Part shown: positions 4,282 through 63,000 of the stretch, piece by piece
How positions within the stretch are numbered: the first letter of the stretch is position 1
Layout of the letters: each line of letters begins with the position of its first letter
From: Eledone cirrhosa
Lineage: Eukaryota
Assembly: GCA_964016885.1 (NCBI GenBank)
Contig: OZ024741.1
Span: 496,001-560,000, forward strand
Reading direction: 5' to 3'
DNA: 64,000 nt
Notes under the pieces: model-generated
Database searches by the model: none
What the model was told of the DNA's origin: nothing
Seen by the model: only the letters and a program-made list of their open reading frames with translations
Translations under genes and position numbers: made by a program

Positions 4282-5260
4282 CTAAGCCTCGCCTAACTGC
4301 ATTGGAGCGTTTGCTCTTTCGCTTTTTGTGGAAGGCATGTGCTCCGATGGTCAGACGGTCCATTTTCTGTCAATACCCACTATGTGGAGGGCTTGGCATG
4401 TCGTGGCTGATGGTGCGCAGACATGCGATCAAGCTATGACATCTCCACCTCTTCCTCAGCGATGATCAGGTGTGGTCACCGTATGCTAGATGCGTTTTTC
4501 CCCAGCTCGTCTCCCTAACGGAGCTGCAATCCTGGGTCAAGCAAAGACCGAGAGGGAGTGTTTGGAGATTGGAATGTCTTCAGGTGCTCACAGTCCTTGA
4601 CCAATTGAGCAATGCGATCAATGGAAACTCCACCTTGGCGTTCTATAGAGGGTTCATGGAGGGAAACAGTGACAACGTCCTTGGGGAGACTCTGGGCATC
4701 AACGAAAATCAGCTAGCCAATCTCTTCAGGAGAACTTTCGGGCCAGGGCCCATTGAGAACTTCCAGAAATCCCTGGCCTGGCAGTGCTACTGGGGAGCTT
4801 TGCCAGTTCGGGATAAACTCTACAGGCATGGAAGTGCTGTCAGCCGGGCCTGTCCGAAATGCGCACAGGGTGACAAAACCGTCCTGCATGCACTCATCCA
4901 GTGTCCGAGCATTGCTGACTTGTGGGTTTATGTCAAACACCTGCTGTCGTGTGTAGGACAGAACCGGCTATCAGCTGAGTCCATCATGAGGATCGTCCCA
5001 CCGTCTTCCTTTAGCAGGGAAGGGCAGGCAGTTTTTATCTGCCTGGTGGCCATGGCGGAAGAGATCGTGTTTGAAAGGGCTGATGACGAGCACTTATCTC
5101 TTCGATGATGCCCTGATTAACTTTTTAAAATTTCATTTTAAAAGGAAAATCAGGGTGGAGAGGGAATTGCTCTCTTCCCAGCAATTTGTTGGAAGATGGG
5201 TGAGAGAGGCAAACATGACCCTTTGTGGAATAGGGTTACAGCCCTTTACATTTTGAGAAC
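4282..5260 (+). mobile_element. Tx1/L1-like LINE 3' fragment with zf-RVT-type zinc-binding domain
   Basis: ORF 4470-5108 contains WQCYWGALPVRDKLYRHG...CPKC...TVLHALIQC (CCHC-type C-terminal motif of L1/Tx1 ORF2); GC-richer than the flanks. Confidence 0.7.
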
Positions 5261-6147
5261 AAATCGTTCCGAGGTTAACTTTCCCTTTCAATCTTACTGG
5301 GGTTGATTTAATCAATATTCCCTTCTCCCCGAAAAAAATTGTTGGACTTGTGCCTAAATTAGAAACCATTTTTAGACTATTTTATTTAATCTGAGTTATG
5401 GCAAAATCTTCTAATTCAATTTATTATTATATAATTTCAGGTTAGAATACATTCCGCCTATAGTGAAACTGGTTATAATAAAAAGCAACGTTGGGAATAT
5501 AGACCATTACTAACGGTAAGTTCCCTATTGTTATTTTATTGGTTTTAATGGGTCGCAGGTGGCAGATAGTGATGGCTAGTTTTGATATAAGTGGGGAACT
5601 GCTGGATGAATAAGCAACCCCGAACCAACAGCAGTAAACTACTTGGGGAGATCGAGAAATGAGTGACACTTGTAGCTTTCAAGAAAAGTCTCTCAACGTA
5701 GTGGTGTGGCTACGATGAGATGAGTTAAGGCTGCCTCTAAATAAGCCTAGTCTTCACGGGTTTAAGAAAGAACCATACAGCATCGTCCTTTACGCGGGTT
5801 AACAAGGGATGCGTTTAGGCCTCAGGTAGAGGAGCCTACTCAAAAAATATATTGCAGTCTCCATTTCATGCCACACAAACTGGCAATGGGCCTGCAACCT
5901 GTGCTGGGAGGTGTGGTATAGTGGCACAAAGATTGTGTATCCCAAGATGCCAAAGAGGGTTCAGAAGGGAGAAAACCTTGACAATTGGAACAGTTTTTTT
6001 TACTGCAACCATGCCTGGGCATTGTTTTCAGTTCATAATAACCCCAGTAGTTGTTTACAAACCAATAAAGGAGCTTCTTTATGGTTGTTTCAGCTGGTAG
6101 AAAGAACAGCCAAATCGATTGCAGATCTCACACTACCATTTTATATA

Positions 6148-7215
6148 GGTATAGATTTTATATGTGGCCAGTGCTCTGGTGCAATAAGTAGCAGCAAGTG
6201 CCCACAGAATACTAACACATTCCATTGCACAGATGGTTCTATAGAAATAGTGGACAGCTTCCGTTACCTGGGCGACAAAATCAGCAGTGGGGGAGGGTAC
6301 TCTGAAAGTACAGTAGCTAGAGTCAGAACGGGATGGAAAAAGTTCAGAGAGCTTATACCACTATTGGCCGCTAAAGGGTTCTCTCTAAAAATGAAAGGCA
6401 GGCTGTATGATGCCTGCATACGAACAGCAATGTTACATGGCAGTGAGACCTGGGCATTGTGTGCAGAGGATATACGCAGACTGGAGAGAAACGAAGCTTG
6501 CATGCTCCGCTGGATGTGTAATAGTAATATACGTGAACGGCAAAGCATAAACGAACTAAGGGAGAAATTAGAAATAAGAGGGATCAGATGCTGTTTACTC
6601 AAGAGAAGACTACGTTGGTATGGTCACGTGATGCGCATGAAAGACGACAGCTGTATAAAAAAGTCCAGGGCAATAAAAATAGACGGTAGCCACGGAGTAG
6701 GCAGACCCAGAAAAACCTGGGACGACTTGATAAATTCCGACCTCACACACTTACACCTCTCCAAGACAATGTCACTGGACCGAGATCTTTGGCGCTACAC
6801 AGTAATAGAGAAGACCCGCCTTACCTAAGTGCAAAGTGAAACCTACTACAGTCAGTAGGCACCTCTAACAAAATACACCCCTGTCCCACTACTCCCACCC
6901 CATCTACACCACCCCTTTCAATGTAAAGTTATGTTGGTACCACAACATCCAGCCCGAAACAAATGAGGTCGTGTAGGTGTCACAACAAAAAAACACACAG
7001 TCCACGCTGTAATGTGGCCGTGTAGGTAACACGGTAAAAACCTCCCAGTTCCACACTGTAAATGTGGTTGGTGTTAGGAAGGGCATCCAGCCGTAGAAAA
7101 CCCGCCAGACAGTCCTATGCAAGCAAGACAACCACTCTTGCCTCAAGTGGGAAAACTCCCGTCCAAACCCATGCGAGCGTGGAATATGGACGTTAAACGA
7201 TGATGATGATGATGA
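6148..7215 (+). mobile_element. 5'-truncated RTE-clade LINE
   Basis: FRYLG, AMLHGSETW, RLRWYGHVMR and GRPRKTW motifs in ORF 5911-6828; 3' UTR ends in (GAT)n at about 7199-7215; near-identical to copies at 27-28 kb and 54.5-59 kb. Confidence 0.9.
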
Positions 7216-10329: not shown

Positions 10330-10468
10330 GCTTTTAGTAGTGATAGCATATTCAAGAACTTTTGCCTTGCTCACCTCTTCACTTGTCAAAAATTCGAAGA
10401 TGGTGTCCTTGGATTAGCTTATATAGCCTCAGATCGTCGTAAAACTCTTGGAGGTATATGTTCATCAG
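10330..10468 (+). CDS. ADAM17: ADAM17/TACE-like metalloprotease, internal exon A (AFSSDSIFKNFCLAHLFTCQKFEDGVLGLAYIASDRRKTLGGICSS)
   Basis: Polypyrimidine tract plus CAG acceptor, GTAAGT donor; CLAHLFT...F..G.LGLAY...GG.C is the ADAM17/ADAM10 catalytic-domain signature; phase 0 in, phase 1 out. Confidence 0.92.
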
Positions 10469-11029: not shown

Positions 11030-14880
<3,851 letters not shown>

Positions 14881-16480: not shown

Positions 16481-19400
16481 CGTTTCTGAATTTGTTTAGC
16501 AAGATTCTTTATCTGAAATCGTGTGTTGAAACCGATATTGTTATACTTTGGGAGGGTCATGTTGCCATAAGAAACACACGCACCAGTTGCTTTCACTTCA
16601 ATTTATTATAATAAATTTATAATAAATTTATAAATTTATAAATTTCTGGTTGGTTGGTTGGTTCCACAACCAGATAGTTGTTTATATATTGTCATAGTTC
16701 TTTCGTCACACACTCTGTGACCTCTTCAGTGACACACATATACAACACACATCCCAACAACAACACACACACCAACAACAACAACAATAATAACATACCC
16801 AGAAACAACAACAACAGACACGCAGACACAAACAACAATAACAACACATACAACAATAATAACACACACGGAGACAACAACAACACACATCAACAACAAC
16901 AACAACACACACACATTCAATGCCTCTCACCACCACCACAATCTTAACAAACACACAGACACAGAAAACAAGTAATGACAGTAGCACAGAAATCACAGAA
17001 ATAAGGGAAAGTAATAGGATTAAAAGGAGAAGGGAGACTAAGGACAAAGAAAATAACCAAAACGAACACACAGACACACAAAATAGGGTAGATAACAACA
17101 ATGAGCCAGTGGAAAGAGACAGGAGTAATTATGAGAGACATAGAAACAACCATGAGGCTGTTGGTGGAAATAGAAATAGAAACAACACAACTAACAATAA
17201 CAATAGCACTAGTACACACAAAGCAGTAGCCTGGAACTCTACTTTTTATAATCCCTCCGATAAATTGTTCGACCTGCGACGAGTCCATGCCACGACTTTA
17301 CCATTTAACAAACGCACGCAATTGCCGTCGCAGGTCGATGAACAAACAGAAGCACAATTTAGTATAGCTAGATCCGAACTTAGAAATATTATAGAACAGT
17401 ATAACAAGAAGCATAATAGAATGGAGGCCCAGCAACTGGGAGAAAAATCTGCAAATGGCTTGCGTAAGCTCATGCAGCGTTCGCGTTATGGAGAGATAGC
17501 ATGCTTTCCAACAGACAAGTCCGGCAGAATGTCGGTTGACAGCCTGCCAAACTACATCCAGGCAATGCAACCCCACATCACTAACACAAGAGCATGAGGA
17601 TAGAGAAAAAGCCCTAAATGCCCATATGGTGATGTGGACGAATATAATGCAGCCCAACAAAAGGACTGCCAACAACTTCCAGGCCTGGAACAATGACGTG
17701 CCGGCATTGTATGGGCTTCGAAAAGACCATAAAACGGGCAGTGACCCTGTCGCGGACCACCAACACGGCCAGTCTGTGGAGCTAACATTGCTAGTAACTA
17801 CAGACTATCCTACTTCCTCTCCCTGATCATACGCCCCATCATTGAAATGTCCCCAGATGTATGTGACAGCACGGAGGACCTCCTCAGCAGAATCGGCGAG
17901 TGTAACCGATCTAGGGACCTAACAAACTGCATAATAGGTAGTATGGATGTTGTGTCCCTGTATCTATCTATTGACGTGGATTTCGCTGTGGAGAAATGCG
18001 TAGAAAGGATCAGTGAGAGAAATGTTGAGTTCCGTGGGATTGATACTAGTGAGCTGGGACTCCTACTTAAACTTACCTATAGTAATAATTACCTAGACAC
18101 ATATGACCTTAGCAACCTGTGCCCTACAAGACCAGCAAGAGGCAGACCACCTACCATTACCTCAATGGCCAAGAAAACCCACACAGATAGATGGAACGGG
18201 TGGACCAAAGCCATACGGACACCCGAAAACCACGATGAACTGAAGAAAATGATTGCACATGCGGTAGGGGCCAGCATAAAACTAACCCTTAAGGAACATA
18301 TGTTCAAATTTAATGGAAAAACATATGCCCAAGAGGAAGGAGCAGCCATTGGTGTTAGCATTGCAGGCGACATAGCTAACTTATTCATGGTATGGTGGGA
18401 CAGTAGACTTAAATTTAAAGAACAATTAGAAGACCCCTTAACCCTGATAATGTACTCCCGCTACGTTGATGATATAAACATCGTAGTTAAAACACCCCCA
18501 CTAGAGAACAGTCAGGAACTAGAGAAAAACACAATGGAAAGCATCCAGCAAATAGCTAACTCCATCCAGCAGAGCATTAGAGTTACTATAGACTACCCAA
18601 GTAAACACCCCAACCATCGATTACCTGTACTAGACACAGAGCTCTGGTTAGATACCATTAATAACAAAAAACAAATCCTCCATTCCCATTATGCCAAACC
18701 CATGATTTCCAAACATCTGATCCACCGAAACTCGGCCGTTTCGGACCATACCAAAATCAACATACTGATTGCGGATTTGGTACGGGTGATGAGAAATGTG
18801 TCCCGCATGTGCAACCCTGAAGAACTAGAGAGACACATACAACACTTCATCCACCGTATGCAGTTCTCTGGCTACAATCAGAGAGATAAAATCAGAGTGT
18901 ATAGAGGAGCCAGAACCAAATGGGAAAAAATGGTAAATAATGACATAAATGGGACCTGCCCCTTGTATAGGAGCAAATTTTGGAATAGAATAGAAAGAAC
19001 TAGGAACAAGGCTAATAGAATAAACTCATGGTATGATAGCAATAAATACAAGAGTGTAATGTTCATCGATACAACCCCTAGAGGTGAATTAGCTTACAAA
19101 TTTAGAAGGGCCCTAGATAAACATAAACTCAATATTAAGATAGTAGAAAGACCAGGTACCTCCGTAAAAACACTTATTAGCAAGACATACCCTTTTCAAA
19201 GACCCTCATGTATAGATAAGAAATGTATAACCTGTAAAATAAGCCCCCATATTAACTGTAAAACTAGAAATGTAGTGTATAGCATAAGATGTACTGAAGG
19301 ACAATGTAGAGACAAAATATAGTGTACATAGGTGAGACAGCTCGTAGTGTAGGGGAACGGATAAATGAACACTGGTGAGACCTTCAAGATAGTAAAGAAT

Positions 19401-25743: not shown

Positions 25744-25854
25744 CACGTTACCACATGGGTGCAATACAGAATTTAAATACTGGTTGGAGCAGTTCTATGA
25801 ACACCCGGGGTCATCATATTCTCACACAAGAAGCACAGATAGTCACTTCCCATG
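25744..25854 (+). CDS. ADAM17: ADAM17-like exon B (ARYHMGAIQNLNTGWSSSMNTRGHHILTQEAQIVTSH), ending at the first zinc-ligand His
   Basis: TTACAG acceptor and GTAAGT donor; phase 1/phase 1; LNTG...N..G..ILT.EA..VT.H matches the ADAM17 segment preceding HExxH. Confidence 0.92.
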
Positions 25855-25919
25855 GTAAGTGTCTTATTGTGTTATTCTTGTATGGTTCTCAGCATTGATA
25901 TGATGACTGTTTGTGGCTA

Positions 25920-26517
25920 ATGTGTGTGTAGTGTGGTGGTGGTAGTGTGTAGTGTGGTGGTGGGTAGTGGCAGTGTGGTGGTGGTAGTGTGTGTAGTGTG
26001 ATGGTGGTAGGGTGGTGGTGGGTTGTGGCAGTGTGGTGGTGTGTAGTGTGGTGTTGGTAGTGTGCGTAGTGTGGTGGTGGGTAGTGGCAGTGTGGTGGTG
26101 GTGGTGGGTAGTGTGTGTAGTGTGGTGGTGGTAGTGGATAGTGGCAGTGTGGTGGTGGTGGTAATGCGATGGTGGGTAGTGGCTATGTGGTGGTGGTAGT
26201 GTGTAGTGGGTTGTGGAAGTGTGGTGGTGGGTAGTGGCAGTGTGGTGGTGGTGGTGGTAGTTGTGTGATGGTGGGTGGTGGTAGTGTGTAATGTGGTTGT
26301 GGAGGTGGTAGTGTGGTGGTGGATAGTGGGTAGTGTGGTGGTGGGTAGTGGGTAGTGTGGTGGTGGGTAGTGGGTAGTGTGGTGGTGGTGGGTAGTGGTA
26401 GTGGGTAGTGTGGTGGTGGATAGTGGCTAGTGTGGTGGTGCGTAGTGTGGTTGTGGTAGTGGGTAGTGTGGTGGTGGATAGTGGGTAGTGGTATTTGGGT
26501 GGTGGATAGTGGGTAGT
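25920..26517. repeat. G/T-rich low-complexity tract (GTG/GTA/GGT repeats)
   Basis: About 600 bp of degenerate GTGGTGGTA/GGGTAGT repeats. Confidence 0.95.
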
Positions 26518-26803
26518 AAAGAACCTCAGCTCCAACAGGTTTTAAAATCCCCATAAGGATATCTCTATAACACCACCAGAGTTATGGGTCCACACATTTA
26601 TACAGGGTGTGAATACATTCTTTGTTTGCTGGCTCGTATGATGGAATTATGTTAGATGGATTGATGTTCTTGTATGATGGAATTATGTTTTGCGACATTT
26701 CATTTGATAAACCTTGTCTTTGTTCAATGTTTAAAAGTCTATTTACAAACATTATTTTCTGTTCCATCTTTTCCAACCAAACTCCTGTCTGCATTGTTTA
26801 CAG

Positions 26804-26809
26804 AATTTG
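26804..26809 (+). CDS. ADAM17: ADAM17-like 6-nt microexon AATTTG, completing Glu-Phe-Gly of [12 protein letters not shown]
   Basis: tttacag|AATTTG|gtaagt with canonical splice sites; joins CAT G|AA TTT G|GT CAT and restores exactly the two residues missing from the zinc motif between exons 25744-25854 and 32464-32582. Confidence 0.88.
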
Positions 26810-27109
26810 GTAAGTTGGCAGCATTTTTGTTTTACCTATTTCTTTATCATCCATCACAGCACTGTAGGATATGTCCCAGTATTACTTTGGCAGTGATGGC
26901 TAAAACAGATGAAAATAGACCTTCACTTTCTTTATTTGATCATCTCATATTGGAGTGTCCACTCTGTCATATTGGAGTGTCCACTCTGTCATCAACAGTT
27001 TAAGATTTACTTCTTTGTTGACATACTGTTGTTCAGTTATACTTCATAAAACTACAGGCTTTAAGTGTGTGGCTCAAACATTTGCTTTAATAAAAGGGGG
27101 TGATAACAA

Positions 27110-28510
27110 CTTTAGCCCCATCCTATTTATTATTGCCCTTCAGGCTATAACAGAGGAGTTCAAAACCGGCTGCCCATGGGAACTCTTATACACAGATGAT
27201 CTAATGCTCACAGCTGAATCAATGGCTGAACTAGAGAAGAAATTCCAAACATGGAAGCATGGCCTAGAATCAAAAGGCCATAAAGTAAAGTTGTCTAAGA
27301 CTAAAGTCCTAGTTTGTAGAAAGGAAAATAAGGCACAGGTACCCTCATGGAAATGGCCATGCTCAGTGTGTAGGAAAGGAGTAGGCAGAAATTCAATTTT
27401 ATGTCCCAAATGTAAAGTATGGGTACATAAAAGATGTAGTAGGATCACAGGTAAACTATCTAAGAACGTAGACTTTATATGTGGCCGATGCTCAGGTGCA
27501 ATAAGTAGCAAGTGTCCAAAGGATACTAGCTCCTTCTATTGCTCAGATGGTTCTATAGAAATAGTAGACACTTTCCTTTACCTGGGTGACGAAATCACCA
27601 GTGGTGGAGGGTGTTCTGAAAGTACAGTAGCCAGAGTCAGAACGGGATGGAAAAAGTTCAGAGAGCTTATACCGCTGTTGGCCACAAAAGGTTTCTCTCT
27701 AAAAATGAAAGGCCGATTGTATGATGCTTGTATACGAACAGCAATGCTTCATGGCAGTGAGACATGGGCATTGCATGCAGAGGACCTGCGCAGACTGGAA
27801 AGGAACGAAGCATGCATGCTCTGTTGGATGTGTAATAGTAATATATGTGAACGGCAAAGCATAAATGAACTAAGTGAGAAATTAGGAATAAGCAGGATCA
27901 GATGCTGTTTACTTGAGAGAAGACTACGTTAGTATGGCCATGTGATGCGTTTGAAAGACGATAGCTGAATAAAAAAGTGCAGGGTGATCAAAATTGATGG
28001 TAGTTACGGAGTAGGTAGACCCAGAAAAACCTGGGACGATCTGATAAATTCCGACCTTACACACTTGCACCTCTCTAAGACTGTCACTGGACCGAGATCT
28101 TTGGCGCTACGCAGTAATACAGAAGACCCGCTTTGCCTATGTACAAAGTTAACCTACAGTCAGTAGGCACATCTTAACCAAATATACACCCAATCCACTA
28201 CCCTACCCTATCCTCCCACTCCCACCAACAGCACGAGATAATGAGATCGAGATCGTGTAGGTGTCAAGAGAAAAAAAAACACAATCCACGCTGTAATGTG
28301 GCCATGTAGGTAACACGGTAAAAAGTTCCCAGTTCCACACTGTAAATGTGGTTGGTGTTAGGAAGGGCATCCAGCCGTAGAAAACCTACCTGATAGTCCT
28401 ATATGTGCGAGACACGGTCACCCAACCAACCTTGCCTCAAGTGGGACAACTCCCGTCTAACCCATGCTACCGTGGAAAATGGATGTTAAACGAAGATGAT
28501 GATGATGATT
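27110..28510 (+). mobile_element. 5'-truncated RTE LINE
   Basis: ORF 26955-27932: SPILF, LLYTDD, Cys-rich insert, FLYLG, HGSETW; (GAT)n tail at about 28492-28509. Confidence 0.9.
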
Positions 28511-28684
28511 AAATGAGTGAGTTTAGACAGCAGTCTGTAACAGGAGGATTAGCCGTGCGTATCATATTTATATAAGCAGCAGGAGCACTGTAAAATAGTG
28601 TGTGTATATATTGCTCAAAATAATGTCAACCAGGATAATGTCATAGATTTGATATTAACTGCCTCCATCTCTCTCACTCTCCTC

Positions 28685-28925
28685 ATCTCTTTCTATCATA
28701 AGTAGATGGGAGCCCACGCGCTGACTGCCCTGAGGCCCCGGCAGACAGAATAGAGGAGGCCTTGGTGGATGGTGAGGGAAATGCATTGGAAGAGCCATTC
28801 CAGCTCGGGAGGCTCACACCTGTGGGTAACTGACTCCGTGCTGATGGTGGTGAGCAGGAGGGAGGTGGTCCTAGGGCCAAGGACACAAGAAGTCTCCACT
28901 GCTGCGGGCTCGACCGAATATGTTT
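28685..28925 (-). mobile_element. Possible C-terminal remnant of a CRE-like RLE retrotransposon
   Basis: AAVETSCVLGP...ELEWLFQCISLTIHQG resembles the (A)VET.G...L.QR.S..IQRG end of CRE-type ORFs; short and degenerate. Confidence 0.35.
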
Positions 28926-29059
28926 GTAACAAGGGTAATCATTTTATCTGTGCTTATTCAATTCAGTCACTAAAATGTTTATTAAAATGGTGGCTATGGA
29001 GGTTACAATGGTACAGGACGTTTAGAAATAAATGCAGATTGTAAAATATTAATTTAAAA

Positions 29060-29635
29060 TTACATATCTCAGTCCATAATCTTTATTGATCATTGAAAAA
29101 GCCATTAGAATCTACACATTTTTACAAAGATTATAGAAGTTTATTTATTCAGGTAAAATCAAATTCTGAAGCTTCAAAGTCATTTTTTGCAACTGTTTCG
29201 TTGTTGAAGACTTTTCCTTACAAGAAGTTGTTGATACCCTTAAAAAAGTGATTGTCAGTTGATGAAATATCCAGTGCGTATATGACCTTCCATGTCATCA
29301 ACAGTGAATTCCCTTCAACAAAATGTTTGAAACCAAAATAGCACTGTACATTCATTAACACTTCCTTGGCCCTTCATTGATGTTTCTAGCCATTTGTACT
29401 GCAGCCAATTTTAAACTCATAGAAATGAATTTGGCAACAAATCCTGTTTGACTCTTAAATTCAATGATGTGAAAATTTAAACAAATGCAATTTATATTAA
29501 GAATAGATTCCATTAAAAGAACATAAAACAAGCTTTAATATATAATTTTACATATCTTGTGTGAGTTTTTCTTCTTAAAAAATGTTGAAGCATAAAAACA
29601 TAAAACCTGCATTAATTTTGGAACAAACTGATATT
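29060..29635 (-). mobile_element. Highly degenerate mariner-like remnant
   Basis: Minus-strand YALDISSTDNHF resembles the mariner YSPDLAPSDYHLF motif; TIR-like end near 29611-29633. Confidence 0.45.
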
Positions 29636-29877
29636 GTTTCTAATTGAGGTACAAGGCCACCAATTTTGGGAGCTGGGGAAGTTGATTAATCGACCCCAGT
29701 GCTTTACTGGCATCTTATTTTATTGACCCTATAAGGATGGAAGGCAAATCTAACCTCAGTGATATTTGAACTCAGAATGTAAAGGGCCATACCTAAATGC
29801 CGCGAAGCATGTTGCCCAGTGCTCCACCAATTCTGCCAATCCTCCATCCTTTTGAGCAAACTAATGTAATAAAATAC

Positions 29878-30185
29878 TAATAATAATGAAAATCATTGTG
29901 TACAGTGCTCAGGTGCACTACAACTCATCAAAAGTGCATGTGTAGTACATAGAATAATGTACAAATGTCAGGTAAGTGAACAGTATATGAGTCATGATAT
30001 ACACACAGATACACACATGCGTGCATGTGTATGGAGGGGGAATATCAGGTGTAGTGTTGGCAAATTTTGGGAACATGGAAGTTTTGGAGGATGCAGTGTC
30101 CCGACAGCTAACAACTGATGCAGGTAGTTTGTTCCATGCTTCAGCAACTCTGAGCGTGAAAAACTGTTTCCAAAAGTCATTTATC
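29878..30185 (-). mobile_element. CR1/L2-like LINE 3' end
   Basis: FFTLRVAEAWNKLPASVV is a typical CR1/L2 ORF2 C-terminal motif; (ATT)n tail at about 29878-29887. Confidence 0.7.
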
Positions 30186-30359
30186 ACTCTATTTCTCTTC
30201 CTTCACAATACCCATGTAATGTGGCATAGCATCCAATCTCTTTATATTCACTAACCCCAAACATCACCCTTTGAACCTCTAGCTACTCTAGCTATAACTC
30301 TCTCTCTCTCATATGATGCTTTATTGACATTTACCACTCTCTCTCTCTTACCATCACCC

Positions 30360-30970
30360 ATATCATCATTTAACGTCTATCTTCCACGCTAGCATGATTT
30401 AGACGGGTTTGTCCCATTTGAAGCAAGTTGGGTCTGGTGACCGTGTCTCGCTCATATAGGACTGTTTCTGGCTGGTTTTCTACGGCTGGATGCTCTTCCT
30501 AATGCCAACCATATTTACAGTGTGGGCTGGATATTGTGTGATACCAACATAACTTTACAGAGTAAGGGTGGTGTGGGGGTGTATATTGGATTGAGAGGTG
30601 CCTACTGAGCGTAAGTTTAAGTCTGTGTGCAAGAGAAGGCGCGTTTTCTGTATTACTGCATAGCACCAAAGATCTCGATCCTGTGTCATTGTCTTAAAGA
30701 GGTGCAATTGTGCAAGGTCAGCTTTTATCACCTCGTCCCAGGACTTTCTGGGTCTTCCATCAATTTTGATCATCTTGAACTTTTTTATACAGCTGTCATC
30801 CTTCATATGCATCACATGACCATACCAACATAATCTCCTCTCTAATAAACTGCATCTGATCCCTCTTGTGCCTAATTTTTCACTTAGTTCATTTACACTT
30901 TGCCATTTGTATATATTACTATTACACATCCATTGGAGCATGCAAGCTTCATTTCTTTCCAATCTGCACA
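30360..30970 (-). mobile_element. RTE LINE 3' fragment
   Basis: ORF 30555-31025 RLERNEACMLQWMC...RLCWYGHVMHM...GRPRKSW. Confidence 0.85.
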
Positions 30971-30977
30971 CTGCGCC

Positions 30978-32095
30978 ATTACTATCCACCACTAACCCTC
31001 CCCTCTCTCTCCCTCTTACCATCACCCATCTCTATTGCTATCCACCCCTCCCCTCTCTCTCCCTCTTACCTTCACCCATCTCTATTGCTATCCACCCCCC
31101 TCTTTCTCTCCCTCTTACCATCACCCATCTCTATTGCTATCCACCCCCTCTCTTTCTCTCCCTCTTACCATCACCCATCTCTATTGCTATCCACCCCCCC
31201 TCTTTCTCTCCCTCTTACCATCACCCATCTCTATTGCTATCCACCCCCTCTCTCCCTCTTACCATCACCCATCTCTATTGCTATCCACCCCCCTCTTTCT
31301 GTCCCTCTTACCATCACCCATCTCTATTGCTATCCACCCCCCTCTCTCTCTCCCTCTTACCATCACCCATCTCTATTGCTATCCACCCCCCTCTTTCCCT
31401 CCCTCTTACCATCACCCATCTCTATTGCTATCCACCCCCTCTTTCTCTCCCTCTTACCATCACCCATCCCTATTGCTATCCACCCCTCTCTCTCTCTCCC
31501 TCTTACCATCACCCATCTCTATTGCTATCCACCCCCCCTCTCTTTCTCTCCCTCTTACCATCTCCCATCTCTATTGCTATCCACCCTCCCCTCTTTCTCT
31601 CCCTCTTACCATCACCCATCTCTATTGCTATCCACCCCCACCCGCTCTTTCTCTCCCTCTTACCATCACCCATCTCTATTGCTATCCACCCCCACCCCCT
31701 CTTTCTCTCCCTCTTACCATCACCCATCTCTATTGCTATCCACTCCCTCTTTCTCTCCCTCTTACTATCACCCATCTCTATTGCTATCCACCCCCCCCTC
31801 TTTCTCTCCCTCTTACCATCACCCATCTCTATTGCTATCCACCCCCCTCTTTCTCTCCCTCTTACTATCACCCATCTCTATTGCTATCCACCCCCCCTCT
31901 CTTTCTCTCCCTCTTACCATCTCCCATCTCTATTGCTATCCACCTCCCACCCCTCTTTCTCTCCCTCTTACCATCGCCCATCTTTATTGCTATCCAACCC
32001 CCCTCTTTCTCTCCCTCTTACCATCACCCATCTCTATTGCTATCCACCCCCCCCTCTTTCTCTCCCTCTTACCATCGCCCATATCTATTGCTAGC
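30978..32095. repeat. Minisatellite, about 50-55 bp unit (CCCTCTTACCATCACCCATCTCTATTGCTATCCACCCCC...TTTCTCT), about 21 copies
   Basis: Directly visible tandem array; unit length varies in the C/CT tract. Confidence 0.97.
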
Positions 32096-32463
32096 CCATT
32101 ATGTCATTCATGATATTTTCTATTCAATCTCTTTAGCAACAACCATCATGTAGCTATCACTTCCTCCTTTACCACCCTATTATTGCTTTCCTTATCATGC
32201 TGGAGAAAGAGAACTCTTAAGTCATGGAAGGGATAAAGTAACTTTTCAGGTACTGGTGTCCTGATAAAATGAACCCTGTACATTTTGTAAAGTGGACCAA
32301 CAAGGAATAAATTAGCAAGATATTGTCCTTCAAGTCATCCATATCTGATATAAAGTCCAGACCATGTTTTTATGTTAATTTTTTTCTGATGTTGTTTTTG
32401 TCTTTGTTTACCCTTGGTTGATCAAAGAGTTAACCTAGTATTTCATTTCTATTATTACATCAG

Positions 32464-32582
32464 GTCATAACTTTGGTAGTGAACATGACCCAGGAGCGGG
32501 CATATGTGCCCCTTCATCCTTTGAAGATGGCAAATACGTCATGTATCCCTTTGCTGTCTCAGGTTATGAATTAAACAACTGG
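32464..32582 (+). CDS. ADAM17: ADAM17-like exon C ([40 protein letters not shown])
   Basis: CATCAG acceptor and GTGAGT donor; second and third zinc His plus the Met-turn GKYVMYP.AVSG typical of ADAM17; phase 1 in, phase 0 out. Confidence 0.95.
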
Positions 32583-34920: not shown

Positions 34921-34990
34921 AAATTTTCACCTTGCAGCAAGAAATTTGTAACGAAAGTATTGTTAGAAAAAGCTAATTTATGTTTTGCAG
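34921..34990 (+). CDS. ADAM17: ADAM17-like exon D (KFSPCSKKFVTKVLLEKANLCFA)
   Basis: Long T tract plus CCAG acceptor, GTATAA donor; FS.CS...KA..CF ends the catalytic domain; phase 0 in, phase 1 out. Confidence 0.92.
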
Positions 34991-35828: not shown

Positions 35829-35967
35829 CTAGAACAGAGTACATATGTGGAAATGGTAAAATAGATAAAGATCATGGTGAAGAGTGTGATGTAGGTTATC
35901 TGAGTTCCTTGAGTAAAGGCAAATGTTGTACAATAAAATGTCGCTTTACTCCTGGAGCTCAATGCAG
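35829..35967 (+). CDS. ADAM17: ADAM17-like exon E, disintegrin start (ARTEYICGNGKIDKDHGEECDVGYLSSLSKGKCCTIKCRFTPGAQC)
   Basis: CACAG acceptor and GTATGA donor; CGN...GEECD.G...CC...C....GAQCS disintegrin pattern; phase 1 in, phase 2 out. Confidence 0.94.
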
Positions 35968-36474: not shown

Positions 36475-36582
36475 TCCCTTAAACCATGAATGCTGTACCA
36501 ACAATTGTACGTTTGCACATCAAGGTGTTGTATGTCGATCACTTCAAGAAGCATCTATTTGTCTCCAGAATTCCAGCTGTAC
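36475..36582 (+). CDS. ADAM17: ADAM17-like exon F (SPLNHECCTNNCTFAHQGVVCRSLQEASICLQNSSCT)
   Basis: TTTTTCAG acceptor; ends at a U12-type donor ATATCCTTT; disintegrin cysteine spacing; phase 2/phase 2. Confidence 0.9.
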
Positions 36583-38716
36583 ATATCCTTTATCTAGTCT
36601 TCACATGTCTTCTGTGTTTTACCTCAAAGTTTATTGCTGGATTTTTTAAATTTTATATAGACTCTGGGGGCTGAGTGATAGCACTACATATTTTATTTTA
36701 TATAGACTCTGGGGGCTGAGTGATAGTACTACATATTTTATATTTGCTGTGATCTACTCTTGAGATATGTTGTTGGTGCAAGATTCCAGTCAGAAAATTT
36801 TCCAGATGACTTAGTTGGGAAATAGTACTGTAGATGGGACTGTAAAAGCTAGAAAGGCATGTCTGGAAAGACTGGAAGAAAGAGGTCAACAAAGACCAAT
36901 ATGAATTAGCTAGATAACAAGTTTATATAGAACAGAGAGGAGCTAAAACCTGGAGGTTTGTCAATGTACAACTTGAGGATCAGAGGCATGTGATATTCTG
37001 GTTTGCAATGCAGTGTGGCAAGTGTGATTCAAAACATTGGGAAAATGTGTGTTCAGAATGACAGTAGTGCATATATCCTCACCAATCCTCAGAAGAAAGA
37101 TCTTGAAAATGTTACTTCAAGAGGTTAATGAATGTGGAGAGTGACTACATTCAGTTGATCTACCAGAGTGATCAGCTATCAAAGTTAACAGTTCTTTAAT
37201 CACAGGACATGAAAAAGGGAAAAGCTGCTGGACCATCAGAGATAGTTGTGACAAAAATATTTGGTGAACTAGGGCTTCACACAGTCAACCATGTAGTATA
37301 CAATGGTGTCATTGACAATGGCTGTCAGAGCAGAATAACCATTCTACAAAAGGAGATGTACTAGGAGGATCAACTACCACATTAAATTGAAGGATCAACT
37401 ACATTAAACTGATGGATCAAGTACAACATTAAACTGATGGATCAAGTACAACATTAAACTGATGGATCAAGTACAACATTAAACTGATGGATCAAGTTGT
37501 GAAAGTAGCAGAAAGAGTTGTAGTATAAAAAAAAATTGTGGAAAGAATCAGTTTAGATTTGATACTGTTTAATTTAGTGCCAGGAAAGAGGTCCACCAAT
37601 AAATCTCAATTCTCAATCCACTTTTGTTTATTATAAAGTACTTTAGGACATAAAAGAAGAGTTTAAGACCATTTGTCAATTGAGAAGACAAGTGTCTCAT
37701 TTTTCGCAACACTGATTTTAATTCCAGCAATACAGCACTCGGCATCAAACTTATCAAGTGCAAGTCAGAGATTACCTTCTATTGAGTTAAGTAACACCAT
37801 GTCACTTGCAAATTCCAGCTGACGTATTTTACACCTGCTAATTGTGATACCGCTTTCAACCCGGCTGCACATATCAATCTTGTTCGTGAAAATAATGAAC
37901 AGAAGAGGTGACAGTACGCACCATTAGCGGAATCTGACTTCCACATTGAATGTTTTCGATTTAGTACCATTTATCCAACCACAAATACTTGAGCATTTGT
38001 ATAGAGACATCAGGGCAGCTAGAAGCTGACCATCAATCCCATACTCCTGCACAACTTTCCACAGCAGGTCCTGGGAAACACGATCATATCCATCTAACCC
38101 ATGCTAGCATGGAGGAACGGACGTAAAACGAAAATAAGAATATACCTCTTGGCATGATTTCTCAAAGACCTGCTGCAGTGTGAAGATTTAGTTGGCTGTG
38201 TTGTGTCTGGCGCAAAAACCTTCTATAGAAGATCTAGAGAAGAAATTCCACATGTGAAACAAAACCTAGGACGGAACAGCCTATACTCGGTCATATATCT
38301 GGTACACTACATGTGTTGTTTCCTTGAGCAGGACACTTTATTTCACATTGTCCAGTTTACTCAGCTGTAGAAATGAGATGATAGGACTGGAGTCCCTATC
38401 GTTCCACTGCAAAGTGGTCGTGGAGGTGCCACGGCAAAAAAGCACCCAGCACTCACTGTAAATGAGGTTGGTGATAGGAAGGGTATTCAACTGTAGAAAT
38501 CAAGCCAGAATCAGTTCCTGTATGAGCAAGACAAGGTCAGCTGACCGGACACTGCCCACAACAGGACAACCCGTCTAACCCATGCTAGCGTGGAAGAACG
38601 GACGTAAAACGGTGATGATGACTACACTCTCTTAACCAATTGCTACTCTCATCCATTCTACTAATTTTTCATCTTTTTAATATAAATTATTCTGGAAATT
38701 TCCTTAACATTACTAC
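36583..38716 (+). other. U12-type (minor spliceosome) AT-AC intron
   Basis: 5' site ATATCCTTT at 36583-36591; branch site TTTCCTTAAC at 38699-38708; terminal AC at 38715-38716; splicing restores C-T-G in frame. Confidence 0.9.
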
Positions 38717-38779
38717 TGGTCTGAATTCCAGTTGTCCCAAATCAGCGTTCAAAGCAGATTACACTGAGTGTCTAGACAA
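38717..38779 (+). CDS. ADAM17: ADAM17-like exon G (TGLNSSCPKSAFKADYTECLD)
   Basis: Follows the U12 branch point and AC acceptor; GTAAGT donor at 38780; matches G.SS.CP......D.T.CLD of ADAM17. Confidence 0.9.
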
Positions 38780-41747: not shown

Positions 41748-41821
41748 AGGCAAGTGTTTGAAAGGAAAATGTCTATCTTTCTGTGAAGCTCGCAATTTGA
41801 ATTCATGTATCTGTGACGCTG
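41748..41821 (+). CDS. ADAM17: ADAM17-like exon H (KGKCLKGKCLSFCEARNLNSCICDA), start of membrane-proximal domain
   Basis: Long pyrimidine tract plus TAG acceptor, GTAAGA donor; GKC..GKC..FCE....SC.C matches ADAM17; phase 2 in, phase 1 out. Confidence 0.93.
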
Positions 41822-60009: not shown

Positions 60010-63000
60010 CCAGTGTATCAATGCCAAAACGCTTATCATCACAGCAACAAATAGGAACAACAACAAAATATGAAGGTGTCGCATCTCAGAGTTGCAACAC
60101 TTAATGTTGGCACTCTCAGGGGTAGATATGCTGAAATAGCGGAGATGCTGGAGAGAAGGCATGTGGATGTGTGCTGCGTGCAAGAGGTGAGATGGAGAGG
60201 TGCCTCTGCGAGACTAGTCGTAGGCAAACATCTTAGCTATAAGCTTTTCTGGGTAGGTAAGGATGATGGGTTAGGGGAGTAGGCATTTTCCTGGCTGAGA
60301 GATGGATCAATAAGACAATAGAGGTAGTTCGAGTTAGTAATCGAATAATTAAGCTTAGATTAGTTGTAGGCAGGAGACTACTGACAATCATCTCTGCCTA
60401 TGCTCCCCAAGCAGGCCTAAGCAAAGATGAGAAAGACTGCTTTTACGAGCAACTTTTACAAACAAGCGCAATGACAGAGGACCGAGACATCGTTATGCTA
60501 GCAGGGGACTTCAATGGTCATGTTGGACAGCTCCAGGATGGTTACACTGGGGTACATGGTGGGCACGGTTACGGTTCAAGAAATAAAGAAGGAGTGAGAC
60601 TTCTTGAATTTTGTGATGCAAGTACACTGGCTATTTGCAACACAAACTTCCAGAACCCTGCCAATCACCTAATAACCTACAAATCTGGCGAGCACATAAG
60701 CCAGATTGACTTCTTACTAGTTAGGCAGCGGGACAGGCAGATAGTGTCTAATACCAAGGCATACCCTGGGGAAGAATGTACCCCACAGCATAGGTTAGTC
60801 ATTAGTGATATCTCAGTAAGCAAGAGATGGAATGAGACATACAGGAAGGTGTGGAAAAGAAAGGTCTGGAAGCTAAAAGACCTTTCACTAAAATATAAAT
60901 TTAGGAAAGCCCTTCAACATGTATATGACGAAAAAGAAGACGATTTAGAGACGTATGACATAGATAAAACTGGAATTTCTTACGTGACAACTTGCTGCAG
61001 GCTACTGATGAAACTTGTGGCTGGAGCAGAGCTCCAACCAGACAGAGTGACCTGGTGGTGGAACAGCACAGTAGATAAGGCTATTAGGGACAAAAGACTA
61101 GCATGGAAGGCTTGGAAAAAGGGTGGGACTAGGGAAGAATATACAGCCGCTAAGAGAGAAGCTAGACGTCAGGTGTACTTAGCACGCAGGGAGGCTGAGA
61201 GTAGGAGGTTTGCCAATGTTCTGCGACGGGAAGATCATAGGCATGCGGTATTCCACATTGCAAGGCAGTGTGTCAATGCAAATCAGGATGTTGTTGGAGA
61301 TAAATGTGTCCGGGATGATGCCGGTGTACTTAGTGTCACGAATGATCAGAAAAAGGAGGCCTGGAAATGTCATTATGAGAGACTGATGAATGTTGAGAAT
61401 GAATGGGAGAGAGAGAAATTACCCTTAGTAGATCCAACAGAGGGACCAGCTATTGAGATTGACGAATATAGGGTCCAAGAGGCGATTAAGGAAATGAAAA
61501 ATGGTAAGGCTGCTGGACCATCGGGAATAGTTGCTGAGATGCTGAAGGCATCAGGGGACGTAGGCACTAAACTGGTTGCACGCATCATCAATCAGGCTAT
61601 ATATGGTGGTGTCATACCCAAAGACTGGTGCAGCAGTATTCTCATAAATTGCTACAAAGGTAAAGGGGATGCTCTGGAGAGGAGCAATTATAGGGGTATA
61701 AAACTGATGGATCAGGTTATGAAAGTGGCAGAAAGGATATTAGCACAACTAATTAGAGAAAGGTCCAAACTAGATGAGATGCAGTTTGGTTTAGTGCCTG
61801 GGAAGAGTACAACAGATGCCCTCTTCTTGGTGAGACAATTGCAAGAGAGGTTCTTAGAGAAAAATAAGCCACCTAGAGAAGACCTTTGATAGGGTACCCC
61901 GATCTGTCATCTGGTGGTCCCTAAGGAAACTAGGTGTTGAGGAATGGCTTGTGAGGACAGTGCAAACTTTGTACAGAGGTACTCTCAGTAAAGTCAGGGT
62001 AGGAATGGAGTTTAGTGAGGAATTCCAGATACAAGTAGGAGTACATCAAGGTTCAGTCCTCAGCCCGCTCTTGTTCATTATAGTCCTCCAAGCCATAACA
62101 GAGAAGTTTAAAACTGGCTGTCCATGGGAACTTCTCTATGCTGACGATCTGGTTCTTATAGCAGAATCAGTAGAGGAGCTAGAGAATAAATTCTGGCTAT
62201 GGAAACAGCAGTTGGAAGCAAGAGGACTGAGAGTGAACCTAGCTAAGACAAAAGTGTTGATGAGTAGAAAAGAGGACAAAACTCTGATTCCGTCAGGGAA
62301 ATGGCCATGTTCGATATGCAGAAAAGGAATTGGCATAAATTCTATAAAATGCACACAATGCAGATCCTGGGTACACACGAGATATAGCTGGATAGCAGGC
62401 AAACTAACAGGTATGGAGAAATATGTATTCAGTAGATGTACAGGGAAATTAGACAGTAGAAGTCGCATTGATAGACACAATTTTCAAATGCAGGAGGGTG
62501 CTATAGAAGTGATGGATAGCTTCCGGTACCTAGGAGATCAGATTAGCATGGGAGGAGAGTGTTCCGAGGCCATAGTATCTAGAATAAGGACGGGTTGGAA
62601 GAAGTTTAGGGAGCTGCTTCCTCTGCAACTGCAGAGGATATGTGACTGCTGGAGAGAAATGAGGCAAGCATGCTCCATTGGATGTGCAGTGTAAATGTCC
62701 GTGAACGACCCAGCCTGAATGTGTTGAGAGAGAAAATGTGTCTGAGAGGGATAGAATGTAGTGTACGGGAGAGGAGACTGAGGTGGTATGGACATGTGAT
62801 GCACATGGAGGATGACCGATGGGTGAAGGAAGACGTGGTAGAGGTAGACCACGAAAAACATGGGCGGAGGTGGTGGGAACAGACCTCAGATCGTCGAAGC
62901 TCACGGTGGAGATGACAAAGGACCATGACGAGTGGAGAGATGCTGTGCTGAATAAGACCCGTCCCACCCTTGCGAGCAGGGAAGAGCGGACGTAAAATGA

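Follow-up and report, generated by a model that had tools for sequence, protein, structure and literature searches.

The window, a stretch of 64,000 nucleotides from the Eledone cirrhosa genome, contains catalytic, disintegrin and cysteine-rich exons of an ADAM17-type gene in this order; a furin-type RSRR site and further catalytic exons lie upstream of it. Among the exons is one of only 6 nt, which holds the last two bases of a Glu codon, a Phe codon and the first base of a Gly codon (HEFGH). The features are as follows:

5441..5515, + strand: ADAM17 catalytic-domain exon
10330..10468, + strand: ADAM17 catalytic-domain exon (CLAHLFT...GGICS)
25744..25854, + strand: upstream exon, closed by the first zinc His plus a single G and followed by a GT donor
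25855..26803, + strand: intron 1, 949 nt, splitting the Glu codon, with a GT-rich simple repeat at about 25920-26517
26738..26803, + strand: acceptor region of the microexon, with a 64-nt AG-free zone, pyrimidine tract, TGC at 26790-26792 (positions -14 to -12 relative to the microexon) and CAG
26804..26809, + strand: 6-nt microexon, phase 1-1 (evidence: coordinates, candidate scan, pattern shuffle, exon joining and 26 annelid-like loci)
26810..26815, + strand: donor of the microexon, consensus GTAAGT
26810..32463, + strand: intron 2, 5,654 nt, splitting the Gly codon; mostly repeats in high copy number, plus a reverse-transcriptase-like LINE fragment that starts near 26940
32464..32582, + strand: downstream exon, starting in phase 1, with the second and third zinc His and the Met-turn
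34921..34990, + strand: last catalytic-domain exon
35829..35967, + strand: disintegrin exon
36475..36582, + strand: disintegrin exon, followed by an AT-AC intron
38717..38779, + strand: disintegrin/cysteine-rich exon
41748..41821, + strand: cysteine-rich/membrane-proximal exon, the most 3' exon mapped

The exons show matches of about 44-87% to cephalopod ADAM17-like proteins, the closest named ones being the ADAM17-like proteases of Argonauta and Octopus. The best PDB match of the exon at 32464..32582 was ADAM17 (human structures; E 8e-10, versus 9e-4 for ADAM10). Joined by their coordinates, the ten exons read through 301 aa with the microexon and 299 aa without it. There was no stop in either, in agreement with an earlier proposal (the first-pass annotation) that skipping would preserve the frame. 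Once the microexon is included, the gene has the HExxHxxGxxHD zinc motif and then the Met-turn, and from its sequence we take it to be an intact ADAM17-type sheddase. A tblastn search of the window and of 60 kb upstream turned up no exons for the signal peptide, the full prodomain, the membrane-proximal domain or the transmembrane helix; ADAM17_MPD is present in two close relatives, P0240 and P0097. Two exon queries, with one candidate scored for each, returned no second ADAM17 locus in the genome, giving a copy number of at least one. The genome also holds a separate ADAM10-like gene and another ADAM, in both of which HExGH lies inside a single exon.

A U12-type AT-AC intron occupies positions 36583-38716 (+) of the same gene, with ATATCCTT as donor, TCCTTAAC as branch site and an AC acceptor, in frame; it could also be prone to mis-splicing by standard annotation. 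Long ORFs are present in the introns and downstream (about 4400-5250, 5830-6825, 11657-13150, 17745-19319, 26940-27929 and 60055-62691). They look reverse-transcriptase, endonuclease or GIY-YIG-like, and we take them to be retrotransposon fragments.

Existence of the microexon

The 6-nt exon at 26804-26809 is a true exon. The 6.6-kb interval between the flanking exons (25855-32463) contains 32 AG-N6-GT candidates, and this one alone encodes Glu-x-Gly and restores H-E-x-G-H. The GT-rich simple repeat that fills most of intron 1 was the source of 14 of the 32 chance candidates. The combined pattern of acceptor, E-F codons and donor occurs once in the window, versus a shuffle mean of 0.05, and 5 of 100 shuffles reached one occurrence; the comparative loci described below are a stronger test of chance. 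Over positions 26455-27150/27141 there were zero differences between the window and genomic contigs of three runs, all of one sample, and the bin 26607-26907 stands at single-copy depth, so the microexon is not an assembly error. The three sequencing runs aligned to the region consist wholly of genomic contigs from one sample and contain no splice joints, and a sequencing-run search with a 6.9-kb stretch gave no RNA run among the matches listed.

The first-pass annotation had placed the flanking exons, the 6-nt exon, the CAG acceptor, the GTAAGT donor and the TGC exactly. Its central claim, that an ADAM17-type protease owes its HExxH glutamate to this exon, is borne out by the single fitting candidate and by 18 of 18 comparative loci. 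It had also pointed to a transposon-free island of about 550 bp around the exon. Such an island does exist, but nothing sets it apart, since intron 2 has further low-depth stretches at 29015-29616 and 31122-32024, and we discarded this argument as uninformative.

Conservation and intron layouts

A metagenome scan for ADAM17 loci yielded 146 confirmed loci, the best 80 of which were kept, with taxa assigned by nearest named protein. Among these 80 loci we observed the microexon in 26, a Glu-codon intron only in 6, a Gly-codon intron only in 4 and a contiguous motif in 21. The other 23, including all cnidarian-like loci (n = 6), have a Gly-codon intron but little upstream DNA, and were excluded from the layout argument as uninformative upstream. 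The loci with a Glu-codon intron only are four bivalve-like and two annelid-like ones (upstream donor confirmed in 6/6), those with a Gly-codon intron only are three bryozoan-like and one arthropod-like, and the contiguous ones are insect-like, vertebrate-like or spliced contigs. The 26 microexon loci are for the most part annelid-like; 18 span both flanks and eight come without the upstream exon. In each of the 18 with both flanking exons and a donor after the His there was exactly one candidate between them, always E-F-G, although these loci are interrelated (downstream exon identity 64-93%). Their reverse complements (28,447 nt) contained no microexon candidate.

The sequence comparison indicates that the microexon is ancestral coding sequence carved out by two introns 6 nt apart, and not a new insert. 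These introns, one in the Glu and one in the Gly codon, split the zinc motif and leave the intervening bases as a microexon. By parsimony, the layouts suggest that the Gly-codon intron is older and that the Glu-codon intron was gained in the mollusc/annelid lineage. In lineages with a single intron the 6 nt are fused to the neighbouring exon and therefore cannot be skipped as a cassette. With no intron, either intron or both, all found in living lineages, the four layouts form a natural series on the origin of a microexon from ancestral coding sequence. The same series bears on how an essential 6-nt exon between kilobase introns gets reliably included.

Some of these loci showed repeats of their own. 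An intron of a bivalve-like ADAM17 locus (L008, about 520-1720) carries a tandem repeat of about 79 bp, with about 15 copies of an HNxGSEHD exon end plus donor. In two annelid-like ADAM17 loci (L022 and L065), the CLAHLFT...GGICS exon is present in three tandem copies, possibly a cluster of mutually exclusive exons within the catalytic domain.

Gene models, transcripts and splicing

Among 122 named mollusc models, 70 include the two residues E-x, 38 lack exactly these two, 6 are garbled at the junction and 8 are short of the motif; a skip-form ADAM17 model is present in 21 of 53 mollusc species. Models from other lophotrochozoans include E-x in nine cases, skip it in one (Paralvinella) and are short of the motif in two, and those from outside Lophotrochozoa include it in 17 cases, with none skipping and two short of the motif. 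The form alternates between close congeners in Haliotis, Mytilus and Biomphalaria. Such flips, together with the six garbled junctions, are as expected of annotation noise, and we regard the skip-form database proteins as mostly annotation errors. On one contig of Mytilus trossulus a skip-form and an include-form model occur together at 99% identity, which may reflect a second locus with a missed exon. A skip-form model can also arise without a microexon, through an alternative acceptor where the middle codon is CTA, TTA or ATA. This route does not apply to E-F-G genes, but skip-form models remain no more than indirect evidence of two introns.

Standard annotation had been expected to miss the exon, and it did so in the 38 skip-form and 6 garbled models among the 114 mollusc models that cover the motif, versus 0 of 17 outside Lophotrochozoa. 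It had also been expected to call the product a pseudo-protease, which is not what we found: both Argonauta models are skip-form and the Octopus models already contain HEIG, and skip-form models keep the name 'ADAM 17-like protease' and still match Reprolysin profiles. From the 44 of 114 public mollusc ADAM17 models (39%) without an intact motif at the junction, readers would wrongly infer dead proteases.

The garbled motifs (P0080, P0042, P0387, P0367, P0010 and P0401; for example HDLG in a RefSeq model of Biomphalaria and HDLC in Candidula) are probably artefacts; a second alternative hexamer may swap Glu for Asp in those snails. P0099, P0104, P0124 and P0170 are long ADAM17-like proteins, at least two of which have tandem metalloprotease units; in P0170 the E-x residues are missing from both units.

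Transcript-type sequences gave a uniform result. Of 85 Logan proteins, all from relatives and from unspecified tissues, 77 include E-x, none skips it and 8 are short of the motif, so that inclusion is the assembled form in 77 of 77 proteins covering it; their RNA origin is deduced from open frames of 700 codons, free of introns, on contigs of 2-4 kb. For twenty of the 77 there is a skip-form gene model at 72-99% identity; these twenty represent 136 contigs, 128 of them oyster-like (for the two large oyster clusters, the members listed are 15 of 104 and 15 of 221). A skip form could have surfaced in this set, because it is in frame and would cluster with include-form proteins, but assembled contigs reveal the major form only and minor skipping is invisible in them. 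Isoform sets in RefSeq and UniRef all include the residues (Biomphalaria 4, Lingula 3, Mizuhopecten 4, Pomacea 3, Pecten 2, C. virginica 2+2), and the isoforms in those six taxa vary elsewhere, never at the microexon. Together these data speak against the tissue-specific on/off switch that the first-pass annotation had proposed. We consider it probable that this conserved active-site microexon is near-constitutive, that is, normally included in all tissues, also in Eledone cirrhosa. The spliceosome would then produce HEFGH, and thus an active enzyme, throughout, with the strong donor and the long AG-free acceptor presumably aiding recognition of so small an exon. The several RefSeq models in skip form count against this reading, and minor or conditional skipping may occur.

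The TGC upstream of the exon had been taken as an eMIC mark. However, a TGC at -25 to -6 is found at 3 of 10 acceptors of this gene and at 31% of 205 pyrimidine-rich YAG sites; since a single TGC matches the background of this gene, we discarded it as evidence of eMIC control. The 64-nt AG-free zone belongs to the top tenth of the background, and zones of at least 61 nt occur at 4 of the 9 other acceptors of the gene. In the annelid-like loci (18 de-duplicated of 26, related to one another), the AG-free zone at the microexon measures 52-134 nt, with a median of 70.5 versus 22 at the next acceptor (paired p = 2.5e-4). A TGC is present at 13 of 18 microexon acceptors versus 3 of 18 next acceptors (p = 0.002; these loci are not independent). 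Exons controlled by eMIC are described as having UGC near the 3' splice site and a long AG exclusion zone (10.1101/2021.02.24.432780). The annelid-like architecture fits such targets; it could equally reflect a general need of any 6-nt exon, for example a distant branch point. The genome has a match to SRRM_C (PF15230), at 29.3 bits versus the Pfam cut-off of 27, covering profile positions 12-55 in a single exon. This exon (L093, G000:C22, about 28,167,743-28,167,880, minus strand) encodes an SR-rich stretch along with the SRRM_C/eMIC-like segment.

The Glu of HExxH is the general base, and its loss is expected to abolish activity. Skipping removes this residue and narrows the spacing of the first two His, i,i+4 in the included form, to i,i+2; a skip form would be catalytically dead because the Glu is lost. 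In AlphaFold2 models of the natural 99%-identical Mytilus pair, which are weak evidence since the alignment drives the fold and which do not bear on trafficking, the active-site helix is predicted to shorten from 381-395 to 381-391, with one turn lost and the global fold unchanged. Local confidence also drops in the modelled skip form, with a pLDDT of 84 at 391-400 as against 96 in the included form.

The microexon could be mostly included and still tunable via Srrm234/eMIC or other factors, with a fraction skipped in some cell types or stresses; the product would be an ADAM17 that stays in frame, escapes NMD and is catalytically dead, and that reduces shedding or competes with the active enzyme. 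We regard this as possible but not likely. The long AG-free zone, the TGC and the modest proximal pyrimidine content are conserved in the annelid-like copies, the SRRM_C match is above its cut-off, the natural skip-form model is predicted to retain its overall fold (mean pLDDT 81.3 vs 81.4), and cold-induced exon skipping is described for a potato invertase transcript (review PMC8483784). Yet skip forms are absent from all 77 transcript-type proteins, the cis features of the Eledone cirrhosa gene are unexceptional by the counts above, and the recurrence of one-intron layouts in bivalve-, annelid- and bryozoan-like loci implies that a cassette is dispensable. The reading stays viable because, as described for human cells, UGC is found in 74-79% of SRRM3/4 microexons and is not strictly required, and because constitutive exons, once shortened, can turn SRRM4-responsive (10.1101/2024.09.17.613571). 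A wider and distinctly speculative version, which we think unlikely, is that gain of the Glu-codon intron made the catalytic Glu a microexon that later came under eMIC or stress control, and that molluscs and annelids dial shedding down in particular cells via a full-length dead sheddase. If true, splicing would act as a switch directly on the general base, and intron gain within ancestral coding sequence would have given rise to a regulated microexon; regulated skipping, if found, would be a new means of controlling a central sheddase.

A strict eMIC-type neural switch, with inclusion in neurons, skipping in other cells and ADAM17 active in neural tissue only, would explain the TGC at -14 to -12, the 64-nt AG-free zone, the multiple-of-three length and the eMIC-like segment. 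It is very unlikely, since inclusion is what was assembled in the 128 oyster-like contigs and in every transcript protein seen that is mussel-, ark-clam-, whelk- or cuttlefish-like; these are unlikely all to come from neural samples. Moreover, eMIC programs are described as almost wholly rewired between phyla (10.1101/2021.02.24.432780), yet this exon is common to molluscs and annelids. Hardly any credence can be given to the notion of a chance hexamer in a gene that is a natural pseudo-protease without Glu. The same deletion is seen in 38 mollusc gene models, and the transcripts examined all come from other species; but such an exon stands in 18 of 18 comparative loci versus none on the reverse strand, HE[FLI]G is found in congeners and transcripts, and the remaining catalytic features of the gene are all intact. 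A near-constitutive exon remains our preferred interpretation.

Comparison with known microexons

In the literature listings searched, with few subscription journals among them, we found no account of this ADAM17 microexon. ADAM does not appear in the main text of a bioRxiv study that includes octopus (10.64898/2026.09.05.749416), the supplements of which could list the exon, and PMC8632122 concerns a 3-nt MAP4K5 exon unconnected to ADAM17 splicing. For human micro-exons of at most 51 nt, PMC4317164 gives a constitutive share of about 81%, which drops sharply at smaller size.

Other ADAM genes share the HExxHxxGxxHD motif and the Met-turn, as seen in vertebrate and insect ADAM17/TACE and in the ADAM10-like gene of the same genome. 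In insect-like and vertebrate-like ADAM17 loci and in that ADAM10-like gene the motif is uninterrupted, unlike in the gene described here. With the neural microexons of the SRRM3/4 or Srrm234-eMIC type, the exon has in common its short, frame-preserving form (6 nt, phase 1-1), a regulator-like domain in the genome, and a UGC and a long AG zone, the last two not exceeding the background of the Eledone cirrhosa gene. Those microexons are described as left out in non-neuronal cells and as little conserved from phylum to phylum (10.1101/2021.02.24.432780, 10.1101/2024.09.17.613571), whereas the ADAM17 exon occurs in two phyla and is core catalytic; the relatives speak indirectly against skipping in non-neural tissue, with inclusion in 77 of 77 proteins as major forms from unspecified tissues. 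Closer in size is the micro-exon of chicken cardiac troponin T, likewise 6 nt, constitutive and from an animal, as cited in PMC4674806; it differs in lacking an enzyme active site and, going by the title cited there, depends on a G-rich intron enhancer.

The best analogy appears to be the 9-nt microexon of plant acid invertase (GH32), also a tiny, phase-1, in-frame exon that forms part of a conserved enzyme motif and has been conserved for long (PMC8831610, PMC4674806, PMC8483784). It lies in the beta-fructosidase motif, is described as constitutive and, according to PMC8831610, routinely goes unannotated. As in that system, the exon found here encodes part of a motif that is contiguous in outgroups. 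The invertase exon belongs to a plant glycosidase and spans 9 nt (D-P-N), whereas the present one belongs to an animal metalloprotease, spans 6 nt and carries the general-base Glu; and for the ADAM17 exon, unlike the invertase case, one-intron and no-intron layouts survive in other lineages.
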